From the NCBI GenBank assembly GCA_963804815.1, contig CAWDRU010000002.1, positions 450,754 to 514,753 on the forward strand: DNA of 64,000 nucleotides, written 5' to 3'. A model generated the notes under the pieces. The model was given only the letters and a program-made list of their open reading frames with translations. It was not told where the DNA came from and searched no databases. This document shows, piece by piece, positions 12,504-43,282 of the stretch. A program made the translations under genes and the position numbers. The DNA comes from Blastocatellia bacterium. Its GTDB lineage: Bacteria; Acidobacteriota; Blastocatellia; UBA7656. Within the stretch, counting starts at the first letter, position 1. The number at the start of each line of letters is the position of its first letter.

Positions 12504-15500
12504 ATGAAGAACCTGAACGACCGGACGCTTACAGAACTGTCTAAACGACTGGCATATATAAGAAATAAGCCGCTACTGGTAGTTTCGAGTATTATGCTTC
12601 TATCTTTTGCCGTCATAGCTTTGCCAGTAGCAATGCTTAAAGTCACCGCCGCCGGACAGCCCGCCGAATCCCAGATAAGCGAAGCCGCTCAACTACAGAT
12701 CAAGGCGCTGCTGGACGAAAAAGAGTCGCGCACGCCAGCGCAACAGAAAATAGATTCGCAACTTATTTATGCCAGCAAGATGTTTCGCGGGCAAAGTATT
12801 GCCGCCGGTGTGCCGACTCTTGAAGTAGAAGTCGGACTCGACAGCTCTGGAAAAGCTACAGTTGATATTATAACGATAATTGATGATAAGGTGCTGTCCG
12901 CGCTCAAATCAGTCGGAGCCGAAATCCTTTATTCCTCCGAAGTCTATCAGAGCATCCGCGCTGTTGTACCGATTGACAGACTTGAAACAATCGCGGCTCT
13001 TCAGCAGGTTCGATTCATTCAGCCGAAACAGGAATCCAGAACTTCCCAGCGTGTGCAGCGACCGCCGAGCTTGCCCGGTCAGGTTTCGCAAACTCCCGGC
13101 TTCGATGCGCGCGCCGCGCAGGTGCGCGCTCAAGTGTCGGAAGCGATGACTGATGCCATCCTGCCCAACGGCACTCTGAGCGTCGGCAGCGTCGCCTCCG
13201 AGGGCGATTCTACGCACAGAGCCTCGACCGCGCGCGGCACATTCAATGTTAACGGAACGGGCATCAAGATCGGTGTGATTTCAGACGGTGTAACCAATCT
13301 TGCAGCCTCTCAGGCTTTAGGTGATCTTGGAACGGTGACTGTGTTGCCGGGGCAGGTTGGGAGCGGCGACGAAGGCACGGCGATGCTGGAGATCATTCAT
13401 GACGTAGCGCCGGGCGCGCAGCTTTTCTTTGCGACTGCCGACCCTACGATCACGCAATTTGCTCAAAACATCCGCGATCTGCGGACAGCCGGTTGCGACA
13501 TCATAGTTGACGACGTGGGCTATTTCGTTGAATCGGCATTTCAGGACGGTACGCCGGGCGTCACGAATACCAACGGTGGTGCCGTCACTCAAGCCGTGAA
13601 TGATGTTGTGGCAGCGGGCGCGCTCTATTTCTCGTCGGCTGCGAATTCAGGCAACAAAAATGACAACACCTCAACCACGTGGGAAGGCGATTTCGCCAAC
13701 GGCGGCACGCTTGCCGTTGTCCCAGGCGGCGGCACTGTTCATGATTTCGATCCGTCAGCCGCTGTCGCGCAGATTGATATAATCACTGTCGGCGGGGGAA
13801 CAGGCGTTCCCATCAACCTTTCGTGGTCAGACGCGCTCGGCGCTTCATCCAACGATTATGATCTGTTCATTCTGAACAATGCCGGAACAGCTGTCAGCAC
13901 TTCTTCCACAAACATTCAGAGCGGCACGCAAGACCCTTATGAGCAGGTCAATACAAATAACACAACAGGCCGTCGCGTTGTGATTCGCCAGAAAGCGGGC
14001 GCGGCCAATCGCTTCGTTCATCTGAGCCTCAACGGCGGGCTGATAACTTTCAACACTCAGGGCGAAACGCACGGGCATGCTGCGGCCTCCGGTTGTTATG
14101 GCGTAGCGGCGACCCCTGCCTTTTCAGCTTTCAATTTCCCGCCGCCTCTGAACGTCGGGCCTTATCCGGGGGCTTATAACGGAACCAGTCAGGTGGAATT
14201 TTTCAGTTCTGACGGCCCGCGCAAGTTTTTCTATAACGGCAACGGTACAGCCATCACTCCGGGCGACTTTTCATCAACCGGCGGCACGACTATTCAGCAA
14301 CCTGTTATCTCGGCTGCCGACGGCGTAGTCGTCACCGGAGTCGGAGATTTCCCGGTTCCATTCTTCGGCACGTCAGCCGCAGCGCCGCACGCTGCCGCCA
14401 TCGCGGGCCTCATCAAATCAGCCAATCCGTCATTCACACAGGCGCAGATCAAGACGGCTCTGACCACGACGGCTATTGATATAGAGACGGCTGGAACAGA
14501 CCGCGACGCAGGGTTCGGCATCGTCATGCCTTACCCGGCGCTGCAATCGCTCGGCGTGACGGGCAAGGCGTTTCTCGAACCGGGTTCGATTACGGCGACA
14601 GAAGTTTGCTGCAACTCCAACGGATTGATCGAGCGCGGCGAAAGTGCTTCACTAAACGTCGTCTTGAATAATCCGGGGCTGTTGAACGCGACGGGCATCA
14701 CTTCAACTCTGGCTACATCAACGCCGGGCGTCACTGTACTGAGCGGCTCATCTGCTTATTCAGACCTTGCTGCAACCTCTGGCACAGGGACGAACGCGAC
14801 GCCGTTCAGCTTCTCGTTAGCCACGAATTCGGCGGTTGATCTGGTAATTAATTTTACCTTGACGGTTAGCTATGCGGGCGGATGGAATCCGTCGCAGGTA
14901 ATCAACTTCACAGTCGAAACCGGTCGCAAGCCGATCACTACGGTATTAGATACTACAACTCCGACGACCAGCACCAGCTTCCCAACATCCATAACCGGAA
15001 CGCAGACAAATCTTGTTTTCCCGGATGATCCGCCAAGCACCTGCGCGGTTCCTACAGCATTTCCGGGCACGCTTACGTCAACGACTCCAAGGTTTGATTC
15101 TTACACTTTGACGAACACAAGTGGGGCCACCGCCTGCGTAACAATTACGATAACGGCTGACAAAACCGCACTCGGCGCTGTTCAGGCAGTTGCGTATAAC
15201 GGAGCTTTCAATCCGGCAAGCGTCGGCACGAATTATCTGGCGGATCCCGGATTCAGCTCTATAGTCTTCCCCGGCTATCCCGGAGTTTTCTCCGGCAATA
15301 TTCCTGCCGCGGGAACCCTCACTGTTGTTGTGGTTGAATTGAAATCACCCGCGAATGGTTTCCCAAGCGCGGTCGGCAGCAGTTACACGCTCAAGGTGGC
15401 GGGTCTGCCCGTGACCGCTGCGCCGACGCTGGCAAAGGTCGGCTCGTTCGACGCGATAAATTCTAACGACGGGCGCGTGCTTCTGAAATGGAACTCGACT

Positions 15501-17903
15501 TATGAGGTAGAAAATCTCGGCTACAACGTCTACCGCGAAGTCGCTGGCCAGCGCACGAAAGTCAATCCTCAACTCATCGCCGGTTCGGCGCTGATCACCG
15601 GCGACAAGGTTGCGCTCGGTTCAGGAAAGGGCTATGCGTGGGGAGATCAGCCGCAGTCAACAGCCTCGGCCCGCTACTGGCTCGAAGCCGTTGACCTCAA
15701 CGGCCAGAGCACCTGGACCGGACCCGTTTCGGTCAAGTCTTTCTCCGGCAATCCCGCCGCTAACCTCGAACAGTCCGCCCTGCTGACCAGAATCGGTCTG
15801 GCTCAGGCTCAGATGACCCTCGGTCAGGGGTCAACTCCTGTCGAAGCGCGCGCGCAGGTGGCGGCGGTTTCCGCTGCGGGCTTGCAGACTCAAACGGGGC
15901 TGGCCGGTCAGGCAGCCGTCAAGATAGCTGTCAGGCGCGAAGGCTGGTATCGAATCTCGCAAGGCGAATTGGTTGCGGCGGGACTTGATTCGAGAGTCGA
16001 TCCGCGCAACCTCCAACTCTATGTTGACGGGCAGGCAGTCGGGATGGTTGTCAACGGCGAGCAGGACGGCAGATTCGAGGCTGCGGATTCACTGGAGTTC
16101 TACGGCGTGGGACTCAACAGCGCAGCCACAGACGCACACGTCTACTGGCTGGCGGCAAGCACACAACCCGGCACACGCATAAAGGCAACGCGGGCGACGG
16201 GCGGAACAGCGACCTCAGCAAGCTTCCCCTACAGCGTGGAACGCAAAGACCGGACGTTGTATTTCTCAGCCTTGAAAAACGGGGATGTGGAGAACTTCTT
16301 CGGGCCGGTCGTATCAGCGACGGGAATCGAGCAGACGCTGGCGCTGACAGGACTCGCGGCAGGGGCGGCATCTGCGAGCCTTGACGTGTCGCTGCAAGGG
16401 GTGACGGGACTGACGCATCAGGTGAGAGTGCTGCTCAATGGAGCGAACGTCGGAGTAGTGAACTTCACCGGGCAGAGTCAGGGCAAGGCTCGCCTTGCCC
16501 TATCACAGAGCCAGTTGCGAGAAGGAGTGAACACGGTGCAGCTGACGGCGCTGGGAGGCAGTTCGGACATAAGCCTTGTTGAAAGCCTGAGAGTCACCTA
16601 TCAGCGGAAGTACACGGCAGACAACAACGCGCTGAGGCTGAACGCGGCAGGCGGGCAGCAGGTGACGATAGGAGGGTTCACATCGACCGGCATACGAGTG
16701 ATGGATGTGACGGATTGGAACAACGTGCAGGAGTTGACCGGAGCAGTATTGGGAGGGAAGACGAACGGAAGCATCACAATAACGGTGCCGGGAACAGGGC
16801 CGCGAGTGTTGTATGCGTTTTCGTCAGACCGGGCGATGAGCGTGACGCCAAAGGCGAACACGCCGTCGAACCTGAGGGGAGGAAGCCCTGCCGCCGATTA
16901 CATAATGATAACGACAAGAGAGATGGCGGCGAGCCTGAATCCGTTGAAGACGTTGAGAGAGAGTCAGGGCCTTGCAGTAGCGGTCGTGGACGTAGAGGAC
17001 ATCTATGACGAGTTCAGCTACGGGAACAAGAATGCGCAGGCGGTGAAGGATTACCTGACGCTGGCCAACAGTAGTTTTGGAAGGCCGGTGAGATTCGTGC
17101 TGCTTGCAGGAGATGCGAGCTATGACCCGAAGAATTATCTGGGATACGGAGACAGCGACCTTGTGCCGACGAAGCTGTATGACAGCGGGTACATGGAAGC
17201 GGCGACAGATGATGGGTTCGTGGACTTCAATGGAGACAATGTGCCGGATGTGGCGATAGGGAGGTTGCCGGTGCGCAACGCGACGGAAGCGGCGGCAATG
17301 GTAGGAAAGATAGTTCGATATGAAAGCTCAGCAGGGTCGAATACGGTGCTGCTGTCATCAGATCTGGGAGACGGGTATAACTTCGGGTCAGTGAACACAG
17401 CGCTGAGAGGACTGCTGCCGTCCGGAGTGGGGGTGAGCGAAATAAACCGAGGAAGCGCGGATGACGGGGTAGTTAGAAATCAGCTTCTTGAGGCGATCAA
17501 CGCGGGACAGAAGATCGTGAATTATAATGGACACGGAAGCGTGACTCTGTTGAGAGGCAACATTCTGACAGGAAGTGATGCGGCAACAATGACAAACACC
17601 CAGAAGCTGTCGGTGTTTGTGATGATGACGTGTCTGAATGGATACTTTGATGATCCGGGAGTAGACAGCCTGAGCGAGAGCGTGATGAAGGCAGCGGGAG
17701 GAGCAGCGGGAGCGTGGGCATCAGCTGCGCAGTGCGAACCGTTCGGACAAGCACTGATGAATCAGGAGCTATATCGTTTGTTGTTTAACGGTCAGAATCT
17801 GACGCTGGGCGAAGCGACGGCGAAAGCAAAAGCCTCGGTCAGCGACGTTGACGTGCGAAGGTCGTGGATCTATTTCGGAGACCCGGCGATGAAGCTGAAG
17901 TAA
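12504..17903 (+). CDS. giant secreted dual-protease protein. Signal anchor, subtilase-like (S8) domain, Thr/Ser-rich beta and FN3-like middle region, C-terminal gingipain-like (peptidase C25) domain.
   Basis: 1799 aa with a ribosome-binding site ataaggaga. S8-like motifs: IGVISDGV (Asp), IIHDVAPGA (His), SAANSGN (Asn) and GTSAAAPHAAAIAGL (Ser). C25-like region: FVLLAGDASYDP...DVAIGRLPV...IVRYES...NYNGHGSV (His) ...MMTCLNGYF (Cys). A terminator hairpin lies downstream. Confidence 0.9.
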   Translation: MKNLNDRTLTELSKRLAYIRNKPLLVVSSIMLLSFAVIALPVAMLKVTAAGQPAESQISEAAQLQIKALLDEKESRTPAQQKIDSQLIYASKMFRGQSIAAGVPTLEVEVGLDSSGKATVDIITIIDDKVLSALKSVGAEILYSSEVYQSIRAVVPIDRLETIAALQQVRFIQPKQESRTSQRVQRPPSLPGQVSQTPGFDARAAQVRAQVSEAMTDAILPNGTLSVGSVASEGDSTHRASTARGTFNVNGTGIKIGVISDGVTNLAASQALGDLGTVTVLPGQVGSGDEGTAMLEIIHDVAPGAQLFFATADPTITQFAQNIRDLRTAGCDIIVDDVGYFVESAFQDGTPGVTNTNGGAVTQAVNDVVAAGALYFSSAANSGNKNDNTSTTWEGDFANGGTLAVVPGGGTVHDFDPSAAVAQIDIITVGGGTGVPINLSWSDALGASSNDYDLFILNNAGTAVSTSSTNIQSGTQDPYEQVNTNNTTGRRVVIRQKAGAANRFVHLSLNGGLITFNTQGETHGHAAASGCYGVAATPAFSAFNFPPPLNVGPYPGAYNGTSQVEFFSSDGPRKFFYNGNGTAITPGDFSSTGGTTIQQPVISAADGVVVTGVGDFPVPFFGTSAAAPHAAAIAGLIKSANPSFTQAQIKTALTTTAIDIETAGTDRDAGFGIVMPYPALQSLGVTGKAFLEPGSITATEVCCNSNGLIERGESASLNVVLNNPGLLNATGITSTLATSTPGVTVLSGSSAYSDLAATSGTGTNATPFSFSLATNSAVDLVINFTLTVSYAGGWNPSQVINFTVETGRKPITTVLDTTTPTTSTSFPTSITGTQTNLVFPDDPPSTCAVPTAFPGTLTSTTPRFDSYTLTNTSGATACVTITITADKTALGAVQAVAYNGAFNPASVGTNYLADPGFSSIVFPGYPGVFSGNIPAAGTLTVVVVELKSPANGFPSAVGSSYTLKVAGLPVTAAPTLAKVGSFDAINSNDGRVLLKWNSTYEVENLGYNVYREVAGQRTKVNPQLIAGSALITGDKVALGSGKGYAWGDQPQSTASARYWLEAVDLNGQSTWTGPVSVKSFSGNPAANLEQSALLTRIGLAQAQMTLGQGSTPVEARAQVAAVSAAGLQTQTGLAGQAAVKIAVRREGWYRISQGELVAAGLDSRVDPRNLQLYVDGQAVGMVVNGEQDGRFEAADSLEFYGVGLNSAATDAHVYWLAASTQPGTRIKATRATGGTATSASFPYSVERKDRTLYFSALKNGDVENFFGPVVSATGIEQTLALTGLAAGAASASLDVSLQGVTGLTHQVRVLLNGANVGVVNFTGQSQGKARLALSQSQLREGVNTVQLTALGGSSDISLVESLRVTYQRKYTADNNALRLNAAGGQQVTIGGFTSTGIRVMDVTDWNNVQELTGAVLGGKTNGSITITVPGTGPRVLYAFSSDRAMSVTPKANTPSNLRGGSPAADYIMITTREMAASLNPLKTLRESQGLAVAVVDVEDIYDEFSYGNKNAQAVKDYLTLANSSFGRPVRFVLLAGDASYDPKNYLGYGDSDLVPTKLYDSGYMEAATDDGFVDFNGDNVPDVAIGRLPVRNATEAAAMVGKIVRYESSAGSNTVLLSSDLGDGYNFGSVNTALRGLLPSGVGVSEINRGSADDGVVRNQLLEAINAGQKIVNYNGHGSVTLLRGNILTGSDAATMTNTQKLSVFVMMTCLNGYFDDPGVDSLSESVMKAAGGAAGAWASAAQCEPFGQALMNQELYRLLFNGQNLTLGEATAKAKASVSDVDVRRSWIYFGDPAMKLK

Positions 17904-18367: not shown

Positions 18368-21300
18368 ATGAAAAAACTGAACGGCTCAAAGCTTACCAGA
18401 TTGCCGAATCGCCCGGCACATAAAAAGATCAACCCTGTTCTGATACTTTCGAGTATCCTTTTATTGTCGATTGCCATTATAGCTTTGCCAGGCCTGAGGA
18501 CGAGAGTCACCGCTGCGGGCCAGCCCCAAAAGAGCAGCGCCGAATCGCAGATAAGCGAAGCCGCTCAACTACAGATCAAAGCACTGCTGGACGAAAAAGA
18601 GTCGCGCACGCCAGCGCAACAGAAAATAGATTCGCAACTTATTTATGCCAGTAAGATGTATCGCGGGCAGAGCGTCGCCGCAGGGATTTCAACCCTCGAA
18701 GTGAATGTCGGACTTGAAAGCGACGGAAGAGTAGTCGTTGACCTGACGGCCTATGTGGTCGATGACAAACTGCTCGCCGGGATCAAGGCAGCCGGGGGCG
18801 AAGTCATGATCGTTTCCGCGCCTTATGGCAGCGTCCGCGTCAAAGTTTCCATAAATCAGTTAGAGACAATCGCGGGCTTCTCGCAGGTTCGGTTCATTCA
18901 GCCGGAGCAAAAAGCTCTGGTGTCGTCTCAGCGCACAAGGCCGACCGACAACGTGTCGGATCAGGCCGCGCAGTCTCCGAGTTTTGAAGCGCGCGCCGAG
19001 TCTGTGCGCGAACAACTCTCTGACGCACTGAATAACGCCATACTGCCCAACGGCACACTCAGCACCGGCAACTTCGCGTCCGAAGGCGACACCACGCATC
19101 GAGCCACAACCGCGCGGGGCACTTTCAATGTTGACGGAACGGGCATCAAGATCGGCGTCCTCTCAAACGGCGTGGTCAGTTTGGCTCAGGCTCAGGCGAC
19201 GGGCGATCTTGGACCGGTGACCGTGTTGGTGGGACAAACAGGTTCAGCCGACGAAGGCACGGCGATGCTTGAGATCGTTCACGACATCGCTCCGGGTGCG
19301 CAGCTTTTCTTTGCCACAGGCTTGCCGACCATCACCCAGTTTGCGCAAAACATCCGCGACCTGCGCACGGCGGGTTGCGACATCATCGTTGATGATCTGG
19401 GCTACTTTGTAGAATCGCCGTTTCAGGACGGGCAGACCGGAACCACCAACACCAACGGCGGCGTTGTCACTCAAGCCGTCAACGATGTCGTAGCCGCAGG
19501 CGCGCTGTATTTTTCGTCAGCGGCAAATTCGGGCAACAAGAATGACAACACGTCAGGCACGTGGGAAGGCGATTTCGTCAGCGGCGGCACGCTGGCCCTT
19601 ATCCCCGGCGGCGGATTAGTTAACGACTTCGACCCGTCGGCAGCGGTCGCGCAGAATAACCTGCTCACCCTCGGCGGAGGCGCAACCTCTCCCATCAGTA
19701 TTGCGTGGTCAGACCCGCTCGGCGGCTCATCGAACGATTATGACTTGTTCATCCTGAACAATGCGGGAACGACTGTGGTCGCGTCTTCGACCAATACTCA
19801 GAGCGGCACGCAGGACCCTTATGAACAGACGGGCAGCAACACGACTAACAACCGGGCCGTGATTCGCCAGAAAGCGGGTGCGCTCAATCGCTTCCTTCAC
19901 CTGTCAACCAACAGAGGGCGTCTAACTTTCAGCACCGATGGCGAAACGCACGGCCATGCCTGTGCCACCGGAGCCTACGGCGTGGCTGCAACGCCAGCCT
20001 ACTCGCCGTTCAACTTCGCGCCGCCGCCGGTATTCGGCCCTTTCCCCAACTTCTACAGCACAGCGGATAAAGTCGAAACCTTCAGTTCTGACGGCCCGCG
20101 CCGAATTTTCTTTAACGGTAATGGTACGGCCATAACCCCCGGCGATTTTTCATCGACTGGCGGTCAGGTCTTGCAGCAACCGCTCATCACGGCTGCCGAC
20201 GGCGTGGCTGTAACGGGCGTGGGAGGATTCGCGTCGCCGTTCTTCGGAACCTCGGCAGCAGCGCCGCACGCCGCCGCTATCGCGGGACTAATCAAATCGG
20301 CCAATCCGTCGTTTACGCAGGCGCAGATCAAGACGGCCCTGACCACGACGGCGCTTGATATTGAAGCGGCAGGCACAGACCGCGATTCCGGGTTCGGCAC
20401 CATCATGCCTTACGCCGCTCTGCAATCGCTCGGTGTGACCGGCAAAGCCTTTATCGAACTCGGCACGGCCACGGCCACGGAAACCTGTTGCAACCTGAAC
20501 GGTTTGATCGAACGAGGCGAAGGCGCTTCGCTCAACGTCGTTTTAAATAATCCGGGATTGTTGAACGCGACGGGCATCACTTCAACTCTGGCTACTACAA
20601 CACCGGGCGTAAGCATACTGAACAACACGTCAGCCTACACAGACCTTGTGGCGACCTCCGGCACAGCGGCGAACACAACGCCGTTCGCCTTCTCATTGTC
20701 CACAATTGCTGCGGTTGATGTGACGATTAATTTCACCTTGACGGTCAGTTACACGGGCGGGTGGAATCCGTCGCAGGTAATCAATTTCACGGTTGAAACA
20801 GGCCGTAAATCCATTACCACGACTATAGACACCACAGCGCCGACGACCAGCACCAGCTTCCCGACGACGGCGACAAACAACCAGACAGCGCGTCTGTTCC
20901 GCGCAGACCCGGCCAGCACCTGCGCCGTTCCGCACGCATTCCCCGGAACATCGGGAGCAGGAAACAGGAGGTTCGATTCTTACACCTTGACCAATCCTGC
21001 CGGTTCTCCGACGGCCTGCGTCACAGTAACGCTAACGATTGACAAAGCTGCGACAGACTTTTTACAGGCTGTCGCATATTCGGGCAGCTTTAACCCGGCC
21101 AGTTTGGGCACGAACTTCATAGCCGATATTGGGGCCAGTCCCAGTATTGGTTATGCCAAGTCTCTTTCTTTCAATCTTGCCGGAGGCGCGACTGTTGTTA
21201 TTGTCGTAAACGAAACAACAGCCGCTGGCGCGGGAACAAACACGCCTTACACGTTGAGGGTGGCGGGCATACCCATAACCGCTGCGCCGACGCTGGCAAA

Positions 21301-23767
21301 GGTCGGCTCGTTTGACGCGATAAATTCTAACGACGGGCGCGTGCTTCTGAAATGGAACTCGACTTACGAAGTAGAAAATCTCGGCTACAACGTCTACCGC
21401 GAAGCCAGCGGCCAGCGCACGAAAGTCAATCCTCAACTCATCGCCGGTTCGGCGCTGATCACCGGCGACAAGGTTGCGCTCGGTTCAGGAAAGGGCTATG
21501 CGTGGGGAGATCAGCCGCAGTCAACAGCCTCGGCCCGCTACTGGCTCGAAGCCATTGACCTCAACGGCCAGAGCACCTGGACCGGACCCGTTTCGGTCAA
21601 GTCTTTCTCCGGCAATCCCGCCGCTAACCTCGAACAGTCCGCCCTGCTGACCAGAATCGGGCTTGCTCAGGCTCAGATGACCCTCGGTCAAGGGTCAACT
21701 CCTGTTGAATCACGCGCGCAGGTGGCGGCGGTTTCCGCCGCGGGCTTGCAGACTCAAACGGGGCTGGCCGGTCAGGCAGCCGTCAAGATAGCTGTCAGGC
21801 GCGAAGGCTGGTATCGAATCTCGCAAGGCGAATTGGTTGCGGCGGGACTTGATTCGAGAGTCGATCCGCGCAACCTCCAACTCTATGTTGACGGGCAGGC
21901 AGTCGGGATGGTCGTCAACGGCGAGCAGGACGGCAGATTCGAGGCTGCGGATTCACTGGAGTTCTACGGCGTGGGACTCAACAGCGCAGCCACAGACGCG
22001 CACGTCTACTGGCTGGCGGCAAGCACACAACCCGGCACACGCATAAAGGCGACGCGGGCGACGGGCGGAACAGCGGCCTCGGCCAGCTTCCCCTACAGCG
22101 TGGAACGCAAAGACCGGACGTTGTATTTCTCGGCCCTGAAAAACGGGGATGTGGAGAACTTCTTCGGGCCGGTCGTATCAGGGACGGGAATCGAGCAGAC
22201 GCTGGCGCTGACAGGACTCGCGGCAGGGGCGGCATCTGCGAGCCTTGACGTGTCGCTGCAAGGGGTGACGGGACTGACGCATCAGGTGAGAGTGCTGCTC
22301 AACGGAGCGAACGTCGGAGTAGTGAACTTCACCGGGCAAAGTCAGGGCAAGTCGAGCCTTGTCATATCACAGAGCCAGTTGCGAGAAGGAGTGAACACGG
22401 TGCAGCTGACGGCGCTGGGAGGCAGTTCGGACATAAGCCTTGTTGAAAGCCTGAGAGTCACCTATCAGCGGAAGTACACGGCAGACAACAACGCGCTGAG
22501 GCTGAACGCGGCAGGCGGGCAGCAGGTGACGATAGGAGGGTTCACATCGACCGGCATACGAGTGATGGACGTGACGGATTGGAACAACGTGCAGGAGTTG
22601 ACCGGAGCAGTATTGGGAGGGAAGACGAACGGAAGCATCACAATAACGGTGGCTGGAACAGGGCCGCGAGTGTTGTATGCGTTTTCGTCAGACCGGGCGA
22701 TGAGTGTGACGCCAAAGGCGAACACGCCGTCAAACCTGAGAGGAGGAAGCCCTGCCGCCGACTACATAATGATAACGACAAGAGAGATGGCGGCGAGCCT
22801 GAATCCGTTGAAGACGTTGAGAGAGAGTCAGAGCCTTGCAGTAGCGGTCGTGGACGTAGAGGACATCTATGACGAGTTCAGCTACGGGAACAAGAATCCA
22901 CAGGCGGTGAAGGATTACCTGACGCTGGCCAACAGCAGTTTTGGAAGGCCGGTGAGATTCGTGCTGCTTGCAGGAGATGCGAGCTATGACCCGAAGAATT
23001 ATCTGGGATACGGAGACAGCGACCTTGTGCCGACGAAGCTGTATGACAGCGGGTACATGGAAGCGGCGACAGATGACGGGTTCGTGGACTTCAATGGAGA
23101 CAATGTGCCGGATGTGGCGATAGGGCGGTTGCCTGTGAAAAACGCGACGGAAGCGGCGGCAATGGTAGGAAAGATAGTTCGGTACGAAAGTTCAACAGGG
23201 TCGAATACGGTGCTGCTGTCATCAGATCTGGGAGACGGGTATAACTTCGGGTCAGTGAACACAGCGCTGAGAGGACTGCTGCCGTCTGGAGTGGGGGTGA
23301 GCGAAATAAACCGAGGCAGTGCGGATGACGGGGTAGTTAGAAATCAGCTTCTTGAGGCGATCAACGCGGGACAGAAGATCGTGAATTATAACGGGCACGG
23401 AAGCGTGACTCTGTTGAGAGGCAACATTCTGACAGGAAGTGATGCGGCAACAATGACAAACACCCAGAAGCTGACGGTGTTTGTGATGATGACGTGTCTG
23501 AACGGATACTTTGATGATCCGGGAGTAGACAGCCTGAGCGAGAGCGTGATGAAATCGAATGGAGGAGCAGCGGGAGCGTGGGCATCGACAGCGCAGTGCG
23601 AACCGTTCGGACAAGCACTGATGAATCAGGAGCTATATCGTTTGTTGTTTAACGGTCAGAATCTGACGCTGGGCGAAGCGACGGCGAAAGCAAAAGCCTC
23701 GGTCAGCGACGTTGACGTGCGAAGGTCGTGGATCTATTTCGGAGACCCGGCGATGAAGCTGAAGTAA
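18368..23767 (+). CDS. tandem paralogue of the giant S8 + C25 dual-protease protein
   Basis: Exactly 1799 aa, with the same motifs (GTSAAAPHAAAIAGL; NYNGHGSV; MMTCLNGYF). The C-terminal 830 aa are about 98 percent identical to the first copy. The N-terminal 970 aa are about 70 percent identical. Confidence 0.9.
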   Translation: MKKLNGSKLTRLPNRPAHKKINPVLILSSILLLSIAIIALPGLRTRVTAAGQPQKSSAESQISEAAQLQIKALLDEKESRTPAQQKIDSQLIYASKMYRGQSVAAGISTLEVNVGLESDGRVVVDLTAYVVDDKLLAGIKAAGGEVMIVSAPYGSVRVKVSINQLETIAGFSQVRFIQPEQKALVSSQRTRPTDNVSDQAAQSPSFEARAESVREQLSDALNNAILPNGTLSTGNFASEGDTTHRATTARGTFNVDGTGIKIGVLSNGVVSLAQAQATGDLGPVTVLVGQTGSADEGTAMLEIVHDIAPGAQLFFATGLPTITQFAQNIRDLRTAGCDIIVDDLGYFVESPFQDGQTGTTNTNGGVVTQAVNDVVAAGALYFSSAANSGNKNDNTSGTWEGDFVSGGTLALIPGGGLVNDFDPSAAVAQNNLLTLGGGATSPISIAWSDPLGGSSNDYDLFILNNAGTTVVASSTNTQSGTQDPYEQTGSNTTNNRAVIRQKAGALNRFLHLSTNRGRLTFSTDGETHGHACATGAYGVAATPAYSPFNFAPPPVFGPFPNFYSTADKVETFSSDGPRRIFFNGNGTAITPGDFSSTGGQVLQQPLITAADGVAVTGVGGFASPFFGTSAAAPHAAAIAGLIKSANPSFTQAQIKTALTTTALDIEAAGTDRDSGFGTIMPYAALQSLGVTGKAFIELGTATATETCCNLNGLIERGEGASLNVVLNNPGLLNATGITSTLATTTPGVSILNNTSAYTDLVATSGTAANTTPFAFSLSTIAAVDVTINFTLTVSYTGGWNPSQVINFTVETGRKSITTTIDTTAPTTSTSFPTTATNNQTARLFRADPASTCAVPHAFPGTSGAGNRRFDSYTLTNPAGSPTACVTVTLTIDKAATDFLQAVAYSGSFNPASLGTNFIADIGASPSIGYAKSLSFNLAGGATVVIVVNETTAAGAGTNTPYTLRVAGIPITAAPTLAKVGSFDAINSNDGRVLLKWNSTYEVENLGYNVYREASGQRTKVNPQLIAGSALITGDKVALGSGKGYAWGDQPQSTASARYWLEAIDLNGQSTWTGPVSVKSFSGNPAANLEQSALLTRIGLAQAQMTLGQGSTPVESRAQVAAVSAAGLQTQTGLAGQAAVKIAVRREGWYRISQGELVAAGLDSRVDPRNLQLYVDGQAVGMVVNGEQDGRFEAADSLEFYGVGLNSAATDAHVYWLAASTQPGTRIKATRATGGTAASASFPYSVERKDRTLYFSALKNGDVENFFGPVVSGTGIEQTLALTGLAAGAASASLDVSLQGVTGLTHQVRVLLNGANVGVVNFTGQSQGKSSLVISQSQLREGVNTVQLTALGGSSDISLVESLRVTYQRKYTADNNALRLNAAGGQQVTIGGFTSTGIRVMDVTDWNNVQELTGAVLGGKTNGSITITVAGTGPRVLYAFSSDRAMSVTPKANTPSNLRGGSPAADYIMITTREMAASLNPLKTLRESQSLAVAVVDVEDIYDEFSYGNKNPQAVKDYLTLANSSFGRPVRFVLLAGDASYDPKNYLGYGDSDLVPTKLYDSGYMEAATDDGFVDFNGDNVPDVAIGRLPVKNATEAAAMVGKIVRYESSTGSNTVLLSSDLGDGYNFGSVNTALRGLLPSGVGVSEINRGSADDGVVRNQLLEAINAGQKIVNYNGHGSVTLLRGNILTGSDAATMTNTQKLTVFVMMTCLNGYFDDPGVDSLSESVMKSNGGAAGAWASTAQCEPFGQALMNQELYRLLFNGQNLTLGEATAKAKASVSDVDVRRSWIYFGDPAMKLK

Positions 23768-38419: not shown

Positions 38420-39718
38420 ATGGCAGCACATTTCGAGATAGGCGATGAGTTCATCGCTGAGCATAACCGGAAAGCGAAAGCATGGCTCGATGAAGATTAC
38501 AATCACCTCTCAAAGAGACTCCGGCGGCGAAACGTAGAGATCGAAGACCTCGTAACCCTCGCTCAATCATTCAGCGTAGCCGTGCCGTCGTGGGGAGTTG
38601 GAACCGGAGGAACTCGCTTTGCGCGCTTTCCCGGCGCGGGTGAGCCGCGCGACGTTTATGAAAAGCTCGAAGACTGTGCCGCGATCTTTAAACTTGTGCG
38701 CGCGACCCCAGCCGTCTCGCTGCACATACCGTGGGACAAACCCGTTGACGCTGCTGACCTGCGTGACTTTGCCCGTGCGCGCGGGCTGCGATTCGATGCG
38801 ATGAACTCCAATACGTTTCAAGATCAACCGGGACAGGCACTGTCATACAAATTCGGCAGCCTCACTCATCCCAATCGTGAGGTGCGTCGTCAGGCAATCG
38901 AGCACAACATCGAGTGCATCGAGATAGGCAAATCGCTCGGCTCGAAATCCCTGACGGTGTGGATTGCCGACGGCGGAAACTTTCCCGGACAGATGAACTT
39001 TCGCCGCGCGCTTGAGCGATACCTTGAAAGCGCGCGCGCGATTTATAACGCGCTGCCCGACGACTGGCGAATGTTTTTAGAGCATAAGTTTTACGAACCG
39101 GCTTTCTATTCGACAGTGATCAACGACTGGGGAACGAGCTATATTTGCGCAACCGAGCTTGGGCCGAAAGCGTTTTGTCTGGTCGATCTCGGCCACCACG
39201 CGCCGAACGTCAATATCGAGATGATCGTCTCGCGCCTGATTCAGTTCGGCAAACTCGCGGGGTTTCATTTCAACGACAGCAAATACGGCGACGACGATCT
39301 GGATGCAGGCTCGATCAAGCCGTTTCAACTCTTCCTGATTTTTAACGAACTGGTTGATGCGGAGTTAAACCATGCGGCGAACTTCTCTCCGTCTTATATG
39401 CTCGATCAATCGCACAACGTCACAGACCCCATAGAATCGTTGACGATGAGCGCAATAGAACTGGTGCGCGCATATGTTCAAGCTCATCTGGTTGATCGTC
39501 AGGCTCTGGAGGAAGCGCAGGAAAACTGTGACCCGCTCCTGGCGCTGGCCACTTTGAAGCAGGCGTTCACAACGGACGTATCAGTGATACTTGCGGTGGC
39601 GCGCGAGCGAGCGGGCGGAGCGATTGATCCGATAGCGGTGTATCGCGCGAGCGGTTATCGCAAACGCAAAGCCGAAGAGCGCCCGGCGCAGGTACAAATA
39701 GCCGCCGGGATTGTGTGA
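38420..39718 (+). CDS. rhaI: L-rhamnose isomerase, xylose-isomerase-like TIM-barrel type (P. stutzeri/Bacillus-like L-RhI)
   Basis: 432 aa. It lies between the RhaEW-type aldolase and the rhamnosidase. The last 107 bp are duplicated at 40331-40437. Confidence 0.8.
   Translation: MAAHFEIGDEFIAEHNRKAKAWLDEDYNHLSKRLRRRNVEIEDLVTLAQSFSVAVPSWGVGTGGTRFARFPGAGEPRDVYEKLEDCAAIFKLVRATPAVSLHIPWDKPVDAADLRDFARARGLRFDAMNSNTFQDQPGQALSYKFGSLTHPNREVRRQAIEHNIECIEIGKSLGSKSLTVWIADGGNFPGQMNFRRALERYLESARAIYNALPDDWRMFLEHKFYEPAFYSTVINDWGTSYICATELGPKAFCLVDLGHHAPNVNIEMIVSRLIQFGKLAGFHFNDSKYGDDDLDAGSIKPFQLFLIFNELVDAELNHAANFSPSYMLDQSHNVTDPIESLTMSAIELVRAYVQAHLVDRQALEEAQENCDPLLALATLKQAFTTDVSVILAVARERAGGAIDPIAVYRASGYRKRKAEERPAQVQIAAGIV
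39611..39717 (+). repeat. left copy of a 107-bp direct repeat (3-prime end of rhaI)
   Basis: gcgggcggagcgattgatccgatagcggtgtatcgcgcgagcggttatcgcaaacgcaaagccgaagagcgcccggcgcaggtacaaatagccgccgggattgtgtga recurs with about 5 mismatches at 40331-40437. Confidence 0.8.
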
Positions 39719-39779
39719 GCCGGTTAAGCCTTCCGCGATCAGATGAAGTAAATGCAAGCCTGATGGATGAGGAGAACAG

Positions 39780-40313
39780 ATGAAGATTGAAGGTATCATC
39801 TGGTTGCAGGAAATTGTCGATAAACTTGCCTTAAAACACCATGTTGAACCCGATGAAGTCGAGGAAGTATTTGATAAGAAACCTAAGATTCGATTCGTTG
39901 AGAAAGGCGAGCGAAAAGGCGAGAATGTTTATCTGGCTTTGGGACAAACGGATGCAGGCAGATACCTGTCCGTGCTTTTTATATACAAGAAAACGAAAGA
40001 GGCATTGATAATGAGCGCCAGAGACATGGCAGACAAAGAAAGAAGGCAATATGGCAAAAGTAAATCTTCAACCTTGCCGAAGTTTGAATCGCTTGATGAA
40101 CTCGTGAGCTTCTTCGACACACATGATATGGGCGAGCACTGGGAGCAACTGCCCGAAGCGTCTTTTGATATAAAGATCAAAAGACGAAAGCATCTGGTCG
40201 CCATTGATGAAGAGATCGTTCCGAAACTGAATGAAATCGCGAAGTCCAGAAAGGTATCTTCGGAGAAGCTGATCAATACGTGGTTGAAAGAAAAACTTTC
40301 CAAGGCGAGCTAG
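39780..40313 (+). CDS. fused BrnT-like toxin (DUF497) / BrnA-like antitoxin, as a single ORF
   Basis: The N-terminal roughly 90 aa match BrnT (KHHVEPDEVEEVF ... GRYLSVLFIYKKTKEALIMSARDMADKERRQY). The C-terminal roughly 85 aa match BrnA (LPKFESLDELVSFFDTHDMGEHWEQL ... LVAIDEEIVPKLNEIAKSRKVSSEKLINTWLKEKL). There is no stop codon between the two parts. Confidence 0.6.
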   Translation: MKIEGIIWLQEIVDKLALKHHVEPDEVEEVFDKKPKIRFVEKGERKGENVYLALGQTDAGRYLSVLFIYKKTKEALIMSARDMADKERRQYGKSKSSTLPKFESLDELVSFFDTHDMGEHWEQLPEASFDIKIKRRKHLVAIDEEIVPKLNEIAKSRKVSSEKLINTWLKEKLSKAS

Positions 40314-40330
40314 CCACTTCGAGGGCTACA

Positions 40331-40437
40331 CGCGCGGAGCGATTGACCCGATAGCGGTGTATCGCGCGAGCGATTATCGCAAACGCAAAGCCGAAGAACG
40401 CCCGGCGCAGGCCCAAATAGCCGCCGGGATTGTTTAA
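40331..40437 (+). repeat. right copy of the 107-bp direct repeat flanking the brnTA insertion
   Basis: cgcgcggagcgattgacccgatagcggtgtatcgcgcgagcgattatcgcaaacgcaaagccgaagaacgcccggcgcaggcccaaatagccgccgggattgtttaa. Confidence 0.8.
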
Positions 40438-40498
40438 GAGGTTGTTTTAGACAACCTGTTTTCCATACTAAATTCAGAAGGTTGAATAAATAAATCCG

Positions 40499-43282
40499 AT
40501 GAAGAAAATTGCCTGCCTTTTGGTCGCCTCTTTATGGTTGTTGTCTTCGATTCCAATCAAGATATTTGCGAAGGCAAACAACGACATTAAAGCCGTATCG
40601 CTGCGGTGCGAATATCTGGCCTCGCCGCTTGCAATAGAAACGCGCGAGCCGCGTCTCAGCTGGACGATTGAAAGCGCGACGCGCGGTGCAAAGCAGACTG
40701 CCTATCAGATCATCGTCGCAGGCAGCGCAAACGAATTGGCCGCAGGCAGGGGCGATTTGTGGGATACGGGCAAGGTCATTGGAAATCAAACTATTCAAAT
40801 TATTTATAAGGGCAAGCCGCTGTCCTCGCGCCAGGAATGCTTCTGGAAAGTGCGCGCGTGGGATCAAAATAATAATCCTTCGGCGTGGAGCGCGCCCGCG
40901 CGATTCCTGATGGGGCTTATGCAGTCGGGCGATTGGTCGGCAAAATGGATCGGCGACAAACTGCCTTCGGTCGATATTATCTCTGCGACCATGCTGCGTC
41001 GCCCGTTCAAGCTTGACGGAAAAGCGAAACGGGCGATCATTTACGCTTCGGCGCTTGGAGTTTATGAACTTCGGATCAACGGGCAGCGTGTCGGCGATCA
41101 ACTGCTCGCGCCGGAATTCACCGATTATCACGCGCGTACACAGTATCAGGCATACGATGTGACTTCGCTTTTGCGGGCGGGAGATAACGCTATTGGCGCG
41201 ACGGTTGGCGACGGTTGGTATGCGGGCGGCATAGGATTGAGTCAGGCTCTGATAAAAAAACCGCGCAACATTTACGGCAATCATCCACGATTTATCGCGC
41301 AGCTTGAAATCGAACTGGCCGACGGAAAGAAAAATCAAATTGTAACTGACGCTTCATGGCGGGTGACGCGCGAAGGGCCGATTCTCAGTTCCGACATCCT
41401 GAACGGCGAAGCCTACGACGCGCGCCGCGAGATGTCCGGATGGGACGCGCCCGGCTATGACGATAAAGCGTGGCAGGCGGCGGATACGGCGGAAAACATC
41501 AGCACGAAACTGGTCGCGCAACCGAATGAACCCATTCGCATAACCAGAGAGATCAAACCGATTTCAGTCAGCGAACCGAAGCCCGGCGTTTATGTTTTCG
41601 ATATGGGGCAGAACATGGTCGGCTGGTGTCGCTTGAAAACACAATCTGCGGCAGGAGCTACTGTGCAGCTGCGCCATGCAGAGATGCTCAACCCTGACGG
41701 CACGATCTACACAGACAACCTTCGCATTGCAAAGCAGACCGATACCTACACGACTCGCGGCGACCGAAACGAAATCTTCGAGCCGCATTTCACTTATCAC
41801 GGTTTCCGTTACGTCGAAGTCACAGGGCTTCGAGCCAAACCGCAAATCGACGCGCTCACAGGCCGAGTCTTCAACTCTGCTATGACTGAAACCGGCAGCT
41901 TCACCTCTTCAGATGCCACGCTAAACAAACTCTGGCAGAACATACTATGGACGCAGCGCGGCAATATGCACAGCATCCCAACCGATTGCCCGCAGCGAGA
42001 CGAGCGATTGGGCTGGATGGGCGACATCCAGATTTTTGTCGGCACAGGCATATTCAACATGGACATGGCCGCGTTCTTCACAAAGTGGATGCGTGACGTG
42101 CGCGACGCGCAGGCCGAAGACGGGCGCTTCGCCGATTTCTCGCCTCACCCGTTCGGCAAAGACAGATTCTTTACAGGCGTGCCCGGCTGGGGCGATGCGG
42201 GGCTGGTCGTGCCCTGGCGCGTGTGGCAACACTATGGCGATAAACGATTGCTGGCCGAGAGCTTTGAATCGGCAAAACGATGGGTCGAGTTTATTCGCGG
42301 CAACAATCCCGATCTGCTTTGGAAGAACAAACGCGGCAACGACTACGGCGACTGGCTGAATTCGGATACGCTTGTCTACGAAGGCTTTCCCCGAAAGGGC
42401 GGTCAGGTTCCAAAAGAGATATTTGCTACGATGATGTTTGCTTATGCTACGGACCTGCTCTCGCGAATGAGCGTAGTGTTAAGCCGTGATGATGATGCGA
42501 AAAAGTACGCTGCGCTGTTTGATGACATCAAGGCGGCTTTCAACAAAGCTTATGTCAGCACTGACGGCCACATACAAGGCGACACGCAGGCTGGTTACGC
42601 GCTGGCTCTGCACTTCGAGCTGTTGCCGGAAAAACTGCGCCCGCTGGCTTTCAAATATATGCTTGACGGGATCGCACGCTACAACGGACATATGTCAACA
42701 GGCTTTCACTCTACGTATCGCATGATGCTTGAATTGACGCACGCGGGTCATAATGAAGTGGCTTATGACCTGATCAACAATCGCACGTTTCCGTCGTGGG
42801 GTTATTCGATTGAAAACGGAGCGACGACGATCTGGGAGCGATGGGATGGATACGTAAAGGGTCGCGGCTTTCAGGATAAAGGGATGAACTCGTTCAATCA
42901 TTACGCAATCGGCGCGGTAGGCGAATGGATGTATCGAGTCATACTTGGCATCAACGACGATGACGCGCATCCGGCTTACGAGCATTTTACGCTGCGCCCG
43001 CATCCGGGCGGCGGACTCAAATGGGCGCGGGGGTATTATGATTCGATTCGTGGGCGCATCGAATCGAGTTGGAGCGCTGCGGCGGAAGGCCGTCTGAAAT
43101 TCGACGTGACGATTCCGGCCAACACAACGGCTACGGTTTATGTGCCTGCCAAAGATGCGGCGAGCGTGATGGAAAGCGGAAAGCCTGCGAGCGCATCTTC
43201 GGGCGTGCAGTTTGTGCGAATGGAAGAAGGCGCGGCTGTCTTTGTTGTGCAATCGGGGAAATACAGCTTCGAGACGCGATGA
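40499..43282 (+). CDS. alpha-L-rhamnosidase, glycoside hydrolase family 78
   Basis: 927 aa with a signal peptide. GH78 architecture: N-terminal beta-sandwich domains, an (alpha/alpha)6 catalytic domain (...DCPQRDERLGWMGD...), and a C-terminal beta domain. Confidence 0.9.
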   Translation: MKKIACLLVASLWLLSSIPIKIFAKANNDIKAVSLRCEYLASPLAIETREPRLSWTIESATRGAKQTAYQIIVAGSANELAAGRGDLWDTGKVIGNQTIQIIYKGKPLSSRQECFWKVRAWDQNNNPSAWSAPARFLMGLMQSGDWSAKWIGDKLPSVDIISATMLRRPFKLDGKAKRAIIYASALGVYELRINGQRVGDQLLAPEFTDYHARTQYQAYDVTSLLRAGDNAIGATVGDGWYAGGIGLSQALIKKPRNIYGNHPRFIAQLEIELADGKKNQIVTDASWRVTREGPILSSDILNGEAYDARREMSGWDAPGYDDKAWQAADTAENISTKLVAQPNEPIRITREIKPISVSEPKPGVYVFDMGQNMVGWCRLKTQSAAGATVQLRHAEMLNPDGTIYTDNLRIAKQTDTYTTRGDRNEIFEPHFTYHGFRYVEVTGLRAKPQIDALTGRVFNSAMTETGSFTSSDATLNKLWQNILWTQRGNMHSIPTDCPQRDERLGWMGDIQIFVGTGIFNMDMAAFFTKWMRDVRDAQAEDGRFADFSPHPFGKDRFFTGVPGWGDAGLVVPWRVWQHYGDKRLLAESFESAKRWVEFIRGNNPDLLWKNKRGNDYGDWLNSDTLVYEGFPRKGGQVPKEIFATMMFAYATDLLSRMSVVLSRDDDAKKYAALFDDIKAAFNKAYVSTDGHIQGDTQAGYALALHFELLPEKLRPLAFKYMLDGIARYNGHMSTGFHSTYRMMLELTHAGHNEVAYDLINNRTFPSWGYSIENGATTIWERWDGYVKGRGFQDKGMNSFNHYAIGAVGEWMYRVILGINDDDAHPAYEHFTLRPHPGGGLKWARGYYDSIRGRIESSWSAAAEGRLKFDVTIPANTTATVYVPAKDAASVMESGKPASASSGVQFVRMEEGAAVFVVQSGKYSFETR

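Follow-up and report, generated by a model that had tools for sequence, protein, structure and literature searches.

Chromosomal toxin-antitoxin (TA) genes often lie at variable positions without a transposase, an integrase or terminal repeats, and how they move has long been unclear. For restriction-modification genes, a recombinase-free route has been documented as 'insertion with long target duplication' (Nobusato et al., 2000, Gene 259:99; Furuta, Abe and Kobayashi, 2010, NAR 38:2428, PMC2853133). The class is defined by direct target repeats of more than 30 bp, by the lack of mobility genes, and by a repeat that is single-copy in a related genome. The repeats published there measure 46-423 bp, some of them spanning stop codons, and insertions into operon-like structures occur as well; the cargo consists of restriction-modification genes, the hosts are mostly naturally competent Proteobacteria, and the mechanism is stated as unknown. 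Here we analyze what appears to be a clean example of a TA pair inserted by this route. It lies in a stretch of 64,000 nucleotides, hereafter the window, from a Blastocatellia bacterium of the Acidobacteriota (GCA_963804815.1, contig CAWDRU010000002.1, positions 450,754 to 514,753 of the forward strand), where a short cassette with a brnT-brnA-like TA unit sits at the 3' end of rhaI, the gene for an L-rhamnose catabolism isomerase, and is bounded by two copies of that gene end. All positions below are those of the window, and every feature of the locus itself lies on the plus strand.

The repeat consists of copy A (39612-39719), namely, the final 35 codons and the TGA stop of rhaI, and copy B (40331-40438), at an offset of 719 bp; both are 108 nt long and align without an indel. 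Their identity is 93% according to a repeat finder and 94.2% over 103 nt according to blastn within the window (E = 4e-41), and a MAFFT alignment gave the same picture. A previous sequence-only reading of the window had described this repeat with about five substitutions and had proposed aligning its two copies; the repeat is real, but we count eight differences over 107 coding-plus-stop positions. That reading had also predicted that the second copy would re-create the RhaI C-terminal peptide, and indeed copy B stays in frame, reads TRGAIDPIAVYRASDYRKRKAEERPAQAQIAAGIV up to a TAA stop, and would encode ...AIDPIAVYRASDYRKRKAEERPAQAQIAAGIV. A DNA profile of rhaI matches copy B with E = 2.7e-21, and this second 3' end of the gene would be without function. 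Three assemblies made independently (NCBI GCA_049590935.1, Logan SRR28022924 and Logan ERR11593888) agree with the locus at 100% identity over 1.8-2.0 kb, which makes an assembly artefact an unlikely source of the repeat, and blastn found no further copies of the cassette or of the repeat within the window.

We then compared 85 rhaI loci, of which 80 were sampled at species level and five, closer ones, were reached through near-identical RhaI proteins. Four of the five closest relatives show an empty site, that is, a single rhaI 3' end followed by a spacer of 150-240 bp and then by the rhamnosidase gene or the next gene: L090 and L092, with RhaI 93% identical to that of the window, and L177 and L178, with RhaI 89% identical, all of which are other species and not strains of the same species. 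Neither this TA unit nor a second rhaI end was found at the junction in any of the 85 related loci. Copy B and its downstream flank are collinear with the native rhaI end of the relatives past the stop codon (...ATTGTT-stop-...TTGTTTT...), and a blastn match of 40334-40451 to L090 6196-6313 shows that the collinearity continues beyond the stop of copy B. The 61 nt that follow copy A have no counterpart in the empty-site relatives. With four of the five closest relatives empty, the cassette is an insertion relative to the ancestral layout, which kept rhaI intact, as had been proposed together with the empty-site comparison; the other outcome then envisaged, an old duplication present in relatives without TA genes, was not encountered among the 85 loci. 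The insert has a GC content of 44%, against 55% in both flanks (the fused ORF alone has 43%), and is, to judge from its sequence, foreign in origin.

In these respects the locus closely resembles the published class. A small addiction-type unit is bounded by long direct repeats, whose 108 bp exceed the 30-bp threshold of Furuta et al. (2010); the insert, 611 bp with one ORF and no mobile-element genes, lies within the limits set by the same authors (less than 20 kb, without integrase, transposase or prophage); and the repeat is single-copy at the empty sites. Moreover, the repeat spans the stop codon so that the target remains intact, the surroundings form an operon-like row of genes, and the insert differs from them in GC content. 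Unlike the published cases, however, the cargo is a BrnT/BrnA TA unit and not the R and M genes included in that definition, and the host belongs to the Blastocatellia. A further difference is that the cassette carries a target-derived arm into a second genomic context, which we did not find described in the sections of PMC2853133 on which we rely. Literature that joins 'insertion with long target duplication' with toxin-antitoxin systems yielded the phrase only in reference lists. What is new here would be the TA cargo, the acidobacterial host and the target-derived arm carried into other contexts, the insertion class itself being already known but little studied. Such a route duplicates the target end, leaving the catabolic operon working, and its long repeats can excise the insert precisely; the present locus offers, in addition, empty-site comparators and sister copies that still bear the target-derived arm.

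The segment between the two copies (39720-40330, 611 bp) contains a single ORF of 177 aa (39780-40313), brnT-brnA-like as the sequence-only reading had recognized. Pfam identifies BrnT_toxin at residues 18-87 (41.1 bits, cut-off 34.5) and CopG_antitoxin, of the BrnA type, at residues 98-172 (37.6 bits, cut-off 28), both above the gathering score. From these matches, from two-gene relatives and from restoration of the frame, the predicted toxin occupies residues ~1-94 and the predicted antitoxin residues ~96-177. The best database relatives are BrnT and BrnA proteins with 76-83% identity, and in a database of 5.8 billion proteins most relatives are separate BrnT and BrnA proteins of ~100 aa each, whose genes overlap, brnT ending in ...RRYGRK* and brnA starting with MAKSKSK.... 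In the window, a run of four A residues at 40056-40059 marks the site of a 1-nt deletion: when one A is added in silico, to give A5, both ORFs are restored, namely, a BrnT ending in ...RRQYGKK* and an overlapping BrnA from MAKSKSSTLPKF..., and the homologues in L111 and L112 have precisely that two-gene junction (...RRQYGKK* and MAKSKSATLPKF). Since one added A recreates the two-gene layout, the single ORF is a -1 frameshift fusion of a two-gene brnT-brnA operon. The TA unit is decaying, this deletion having joined its two proteins into a single polypeptide; the ATG from which brnA is usually read lies out of frame, such that no free antitoxin is possible from that start. With respect to the type II BrnT/BrnA system (Brucella abortus prototype; PF04365 and PF12441), the unit agrees in its two domains and in having the canonical overlapping pair as its closest relatives, and differs in the fusion of the genes at the stop/start overlap, the two-gene form with separate, translationally coupled toxin and antitoxin being absent from the window; toxicity and neutralisation are putative.

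A natural, selected BrnT-BrnA fusion protein was also considered and mostly rejected, given the 1-nt deletion in the stop/start overlap and the differing junctions of the fusions in the database. Single-ORF BrnT-BrnA 'fusions' in the database (P0002-P0010) show several junctions, and most look like independent frameshifts in the overlap of brnT stop and brnA start; some come from low-coverage long-read contigs. P0005 and P0008, ~80% identical by eye, share one fusion junction (...KLYAK...), which suggests that at least one fused lineage persisted.

A leader of 61 nt (39719-39779) runs from the rhaI stop to the brnT start and includes a ribosome-binding site, GAGGAG, ~6 nt upstream of the ATG; it does not align to L090, L091, L092 or L005, and is ~77% conserved with the cassette of a second lineage (L093, L102, L111 and L112; see below). 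A linker of 17 nt, CCACTTCGAGGGCTACA (40314-40330), extends from the brnA stop to copy B and is common to the second lineage; in the alignment the window, L093 and L112 all keep its core, CACT[T/C]CGAGGGC, which is degenerate in L108. This linker may be a degenerate continuation of the rhaI-derived arm, its likeness to rhaI 39589-39602 having been noted by eye only.

No recombination machinery was found. First, integrase and transposase domains are absent from the cassette, from the 6 kb around it and from all 50 window ORFs that reach 170 aa, which are ordinary housekeeping, transport and catabolic genes; this bears out what had been noted from the sequence. Second, there are no terminal inverted repeats at the cassette ends, and the best dif-like site agrees at 15-16 of 28 positions with three dif consensuses, which is no better than the mean best of shuffled sequence (for Acidobacteria this test is approximate). 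Third, the integron attC inverse core RYYYAAC does not occur in 39500-40600, and the one GTTRRRY there (GTTAAGC, 39723) is confined to the 5' side; 40305-40440 folds no more stably than shuffled sequence (z = -1.0), and no imperfect palindrome follows the ORF. Fourth, the cassette DNA has no match among plasmids (PLSDB) or phages (INPHARED).

On these grounds we rejected a transposon or insertion sequence, in which case the duplication would also be one of 2-14 bp and not of 108 nt; a dif module, the 28-bp XerC-spacer-XerD (pdif) sites not being found at the cassette bounds; an integron cassette, for which both attC inverse core and structure beyond that of shuffled sequence are missing; and a plasmid or phage origin. 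The locus nevertheless resembles two of these systems in part. The dif modules of Acinetobacter plasmids, bounded by 28-bp pdif sites with a 6-nt spacer between the XerC and XerD halves (PMC6449649, PMC13141974), are also small, integrase-free, often just a TA pair, and moved by host recombination functions, and brnT/brnA genes do occur on Acinetobacter plasmids; here, in contrast, the end of a chromosomal gene, directly repeated over 108 nt, forms the bounds. Integron TA cassettes are, like this one, promoter-less, ~0.6 kb long and oriented with upstream transcription, and a relative of this TA unit lies in an integron-like array (L150). However, neither attI nor a nearby intI accompanies the present cassette, and integron recombination does not duplicate 108 nt of its target.

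The differences between the copies are informative as to how the repeat arose. We polarized the eight positions on five outgroups, seven of them being informative. Copy A agrees with the outgroups at 39614, 39628, 39654, 39679 and 39693, where copy B is derived, whereas at 39694 and 39715 the outgroup state is in copy B and the derived state in copy A; the stop-codon difference at 39717 is ambiguous. Polarity thus switches between 39693 and 39694, and bases of the putatively foreign type, which in copy A would begin at ~39694, adjoin the cassette on both sides, while the 3' part of copy B and its downstream flank would be native. The chance of the two A-derived sites being the two 3'-most of seven is 1/21 (p about 0.05), and the pattern, although only suggestive, fits the prediction of a single homologous crossover, with an implied foreign tract of 719 bp (39694-40412). 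The derived changes of copy A are synonymous (GTC>GTA and GTT>GTG), and both non-synonymous changes are found in copy B, including a Gly-to-Asp change that is unique, being present in 0 of 120 RhaI homologues.

We lean, with moderate confidence, towards a foreign brnTA cassette that arrived with a rhaI end of its own and was inserted through homology, most simply by a Campbell-type crossover in which host functions recombined a small circle. The incoming DNA would already have had the TA genes beside the rhaI 3' end of a related bacterium, and host homologous recombination with the resident rhaI, in a single reciprocal (Campbell-type) crossover of a circular or repeated molecule of ~719 bp, would have taken place between 39693 and 39715. 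The left copy would then combine the native 5' part with the foreign end, which completes rhaI, and the right copy would begin with foreign sequence and run into the stop codon and terminator native to rhaI. The exchange would need no dedicated recombinase, and the repeats would allow precise loss of the cassette as well as gene conversion between the copies. Of the two origins that the sequence-only reading had offered, recombination-mediated capture fits better than a decayed site-specific element, because the 108-nt repeat ends at the stop codon and neither a recombinase, nor a dif- or attC-like site, nor a terminal inverted repeat is present.

That the TA genes travel with a rhaI-derived arm is shown by a second lineage. 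The nearest TA homologue, P0001, lies on L093, to which a metagenome scan added L102, L111 and L112; these contigs are mutually 93-99% identical and represent one locus in a second organism. They align to window 39701-40395 with 76-83% DNA identity over a span that exceeds the TA genes, namely, the last ~20 nt of a rhaI-type gene with its stop, the 61-nt leader, the linker, and a rhaI-like segment after brnA. This right-hand segment is matched by the rhaI 3'-end profiles (DNA, E = 6e-10; protein, E = 1e-4) and has decayed, being ~70% identical and frameshifted. On the left side the likeness to rhaI is limited to the last 27-43 nt of that gene, and neither protein nor DNA profiles found any more of a decayed rhaI upstream. 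With linker and arm common to a lineage without an upstream rhaI, the arm was inherited or transferred together with the TA genes, and the TA/arm junction derives from a common ancestral cassette, such that cassette and arm predate the genome of the window. The arm has no single evident source, 72-78 of its 106 nt being alike, about equally, to many rhaI ends of the Blastocatellia type, and the flanks of the second lineage matched none of the other loci compared. L108 represents a third, more distant cassette in which linker and start of the arm are degenerate. The TA genes of the second lineage are broken differently in each allele, by a frameshift in brnT in L111 and L112 and by junction deletions in L093 and L102, such that these sister cassettes have been broken in three ways other than the fusion of the window. 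The suggestion that an addiction module might stabilize the rhamnose island is not borne out, as the TA unit is frameshift-fused, its sisters are broken and the relatives keep the operon without it.

To see whether the architecture recurs, flanking direct repeats were screened in 77 loci of this TA family, and two further targets came to light. In L119 the 3' part of a Zn-ribbon gene is repeated (at least 98 nt, 90% identity), no more than 3 nt separating the brnA stop from the right copy. The target in L167 is a CarboxypepD_reg-domain gene, whose final ~440 nt recur after brnA with an open frame and an in-frame 24-nt indel. Differences between the copies at first, second and third codon positions number 1/2/8 in L119 and 29/24/52 in L167, and this bias towards the third position shows that the copies of both loci diverged as functional coding DNA rather than by decay in place, a different genome or a paralogue being the source of the second copy. 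With rhaI, the Zn-ribbon gene and the CarboxypepD_reg-domain gene as examples, it is tempting to speculate that this brnTA lineage consists of integrase-free mobile cassettes that use a target 3' end as a portable homology arm, insert by a single crossover, due to host RecA, that rebuilds the target gene, and excise precisely to a circle; we offer this only tentatively, as a minority view. If true, long target duplication would be a general, self-perpetuating mode of mobility for TA modules, and would explain TA genes at gene ends inside operons that lack the hallmarks of mobile elements. Should the pattern be general, it would provide a testable mechanism of TA mobility (RecA dependence, a 719-bp circle) and a search signature, namely, a small AT-rich insert enclosed by the duplicated end of a gene; if not, the locus is one more decaying TA insertion in a soil acidobacterium.

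Other arrangements of the same family were noted in passing. In L150 (204-2671), an integron-like array, a minus-strand fragment of a tyrosine recombinase (Phage_int_SAM_4 and a partial Phage_integrase domain) is followed by brnT/brnA enclosed between two copies of a 244-nt repeat (94% identical), and then by a RelB/YafQ pair. In L170 (3141-3804; also L169), a palindrome-containing repeat of 35 nt, CAGGRTTGGAGCGGRTGCTCCAACCTACCCG, brackets brnT/brnA, 51 nt before and 19 nt after the genes, and a HicB-like antitoxin gene follows; the repeat may be like repetitive extragenic palindromes (REP-like) or a recombination site. In L094 (5001-6183; also L095 and L096), an unrelated organism has a CO dehydrogenase/acetyl-CoA synthase operon whose cdhD-type genes enclose brnT/brnA, with a BrnT 83% identical to that of the window, along with genes for DUF433 and HicA, which provides another operon-spacer case.

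Several observations weigh against a homology-dependent insertion through a circle, or against its generality. The polarity test has just seven informative sites, and gene conversion could give the same pattern; recombinases were inspected in 64 kb of a genome of ~7.9 Mb; and neither a circular intermediate nor a mixed population of empty and filled sites was observed. Flanking repeats of at least 90 nt occur in 3 of the 77 TA loci and in 3 of 300 random segments, a difference that is not significant, such that the case for generality rests on the specific architecture and not on counts. The TA/arm junction is, moreover, old, the TA genes of the second lineage being ~20% diverged, which is in tension with the 94% identity between copy B and the resident rhaI. 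Such a likeness needs later gene conversion or re-integration, an added assumption: it would be explained if copy A had converted copy B as far as the heterology at 40330/40331, or if re-integration had been repeated. Finally, the rhaI remnant of the second lineage has its left edge (~39685-39700 in window-equivalent positions) within ~10-20 nt of the polarity switch, which could hint at a specific break or crossover site, although the second lineage may share ancestry with the window and need not record an independent event.

The same final structure would also result from a one-ended homologous event with illegitimate joining of the other end, either by homology-facilitated illegitimate recombination (HFIR) or by break repair through synthesis on a foreign template (synthesis-dependent strand annealing, SDSA), an alternative that we regard as unlikely but worth serious attention. 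Here a linear fragment consisting of a rhaI 3' end and the TA genes would have been anchored in the resident rhaI, its far end being joined ~108 (possibly ~125) nt upstream of the rhaI stop, with copy A wholly derived from the donor and copy B wholly native. Such an event dispenses with a circular molecule, and it agrees with foreign fragments that seem to end right after brnA (within 3 nt in L119, after the 17-nt linker in the window), with the coding-type divergence of L119 and L167, as expected of donor and recipient orthologues, and with the unique Gly-to-Asp change of copy B, which would be decay of a useless native end after insertion. Most of the cases of long target duplication in PMC2853133 come from naturally competent species. 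What it does not predict is the switch in polarity between 5' and 3' parts, which would then be a matter of chance (about 1/21). In addition, a linker/arm junction common to the second lineage would make the joining ancient, in which case copy B should be decayed to ~70% unless converted by copy A. The crossover of a circle anticipates the polarity switch, and we retain it as the preferred reading.

Duplication of a target-gene 3' end with substitutions is the classic footprint of integrase-mediated elements, as in e14 or phage 21 at icd in E. coli, where integration at the gene 3' end supplies a replacement end. As in those cases, the target 3' end is duplicated here, the substitute end shows mostly silent changes, and the native end is left as a pseudo-copy at the far junction; those elements, however, are kilobases long and have their own integrase, whereas the present insert has 611 bp and no recognisable core site. 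The cassette could accordingly be imagined as the remnant or satellite of a site-specific element whose integrase was deleted or acted in trans and whose attP included a replacement rhaI 3' end, copies A and B being attL and attR and the TA unit the only cargo left. Besides the footprint itself, the foreign-type variants on both sides of the cassette, the left remnant of the second lineage ending near the inferred crossover zone, as expected if exchange occurred at one site, and the presence of the TA family beside a recombinase fragment in L150 speak in its favour. We nonetheless judge it distinctly improbable. Apart from the integrase, missing from the cassette and from the 64-kb window, and the missing recombinase sites (dif-like, attC-like or inverted-repeat), a deletion that spared just the TA operon with flanks of 61 nt and 17 nt would be very tidy; the inserts that follow rhaI in L009, L033 and L091 (see below) are not bounded by rhaI-tail repeats, even short ones, contrary to the idea of a shared att site; and the unrelated target genes of L119 and L167, with repeats of 98 to ~440 nt, speak against a sequence-specific recombinase.

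A purely local origin, whether the rhaI end was duplicated in place long ago or an insertion mechanism made a staggered 108-nt duplication, with later drift of initially identical copies, would account for the synonymous changes in copy A and the non-synonymous ones in copy B, as if A were selected and B neutral, but is very improbable, since no relative among the 85 loci has the duplication without the TA genes, we know of no transposition mechanism that makes 108-nt duplications (and neither transposase nor terminal repeats are present), L119 and L167 diverged under coding constraint, unlike the drift of a dead copy, and the derived sites are arranged by position and not scattered.

The target and its surroundings are otherwise those of an ordinary catabolic operon. 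The rhaI gene (38420-39718) is intact and encodes 432 aa; Pfam matches its ORF with AP_endonuc_2 and RhaA, both weakly, and its annotation also follows from thousands of homologues, including a 100% identical database protein named L-rhamnose catabolism isomerase (P0120). The C-terminus of RhaI agrees with the family consensus, ...YRASGYRKRKAEERPAQ..AAGIV. A hairpin, AGGTTGT-TTTAG-ACAACCT (40439-40457), with a T-rich tail that extends the putative terminator to 40464, stands directly 3' of copy B and is the sole convincing plus-strand structure of this kind according to terminator scan and fold. It is native to rhaI and now 3' of the cassette, since similar ...TTGTTTT... sequence follows the rhaI stop in L090 and L092. 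The scan revealed neither a terminator-like site after copy A nor a promoter-like site in the cassette leader. As it lies between the coding end of rhaI and the native terminator of that gene, the cassette is probably transcribed by read-through from rhaI. The next gene of the operon and right-hand native neighbour encodes an alpha-L-rhamnosidase (40499-43282, Bac_rhamnosid domains of Pfam), which also neighbours rhaI in L005, L090, L092 and L178.

The junction between rhaI and the rhamnosidase gene is a recurrent landing place for TA-type genes in related Blastocatellia. Right after rhaI, L009 (6368-6896) and L033 (6381-8056) have a DUF4258 toxin-like gene and an MqsA/YgiT-like zinc-finger gene; L033 has, in addition, an Unstab_antitox and ParE pair, and a DSP-type phosphatase is present in L009 and in L091 (6364-7142). 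The spacers of L090 (6300-6537) and L092 (1898-2131) are full of REP-like palindromes, for instance AGCTCCGTAGGAGCGACCT...AGGTCGCTCCTACGGAGCT, which are absent from the 60-nt spacer of the window.

A second rhaI end of a different nature was found in L061 (1230-3265), an alphaproteobacterial metagenome-assembled genome of the Dongiaceae. A degenerate copy of the last ~110 nt of its own rhaI lies ~1.7 kb downstream, flanked by two paralogues on the minus strand with a high content of Gly, Ser and Asp. We read this as a tandem segmental duplication that included a paralogous gene, and rejected it as a case of cassette insertion; the left edge of the repeat falls at nearly the same rhaI codons (D-A-G-G-A-I-D-P) as that of the window. 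Lastly, elsewhere in the window, two tandem paralogues of 1799 aa each, with Peptidase_S8 and Peptidase_C25 domains, occupy 12504-17903 and 18368-23767; their DNA is 71-95% identical block by block, and they are most alike at their 3' ends.

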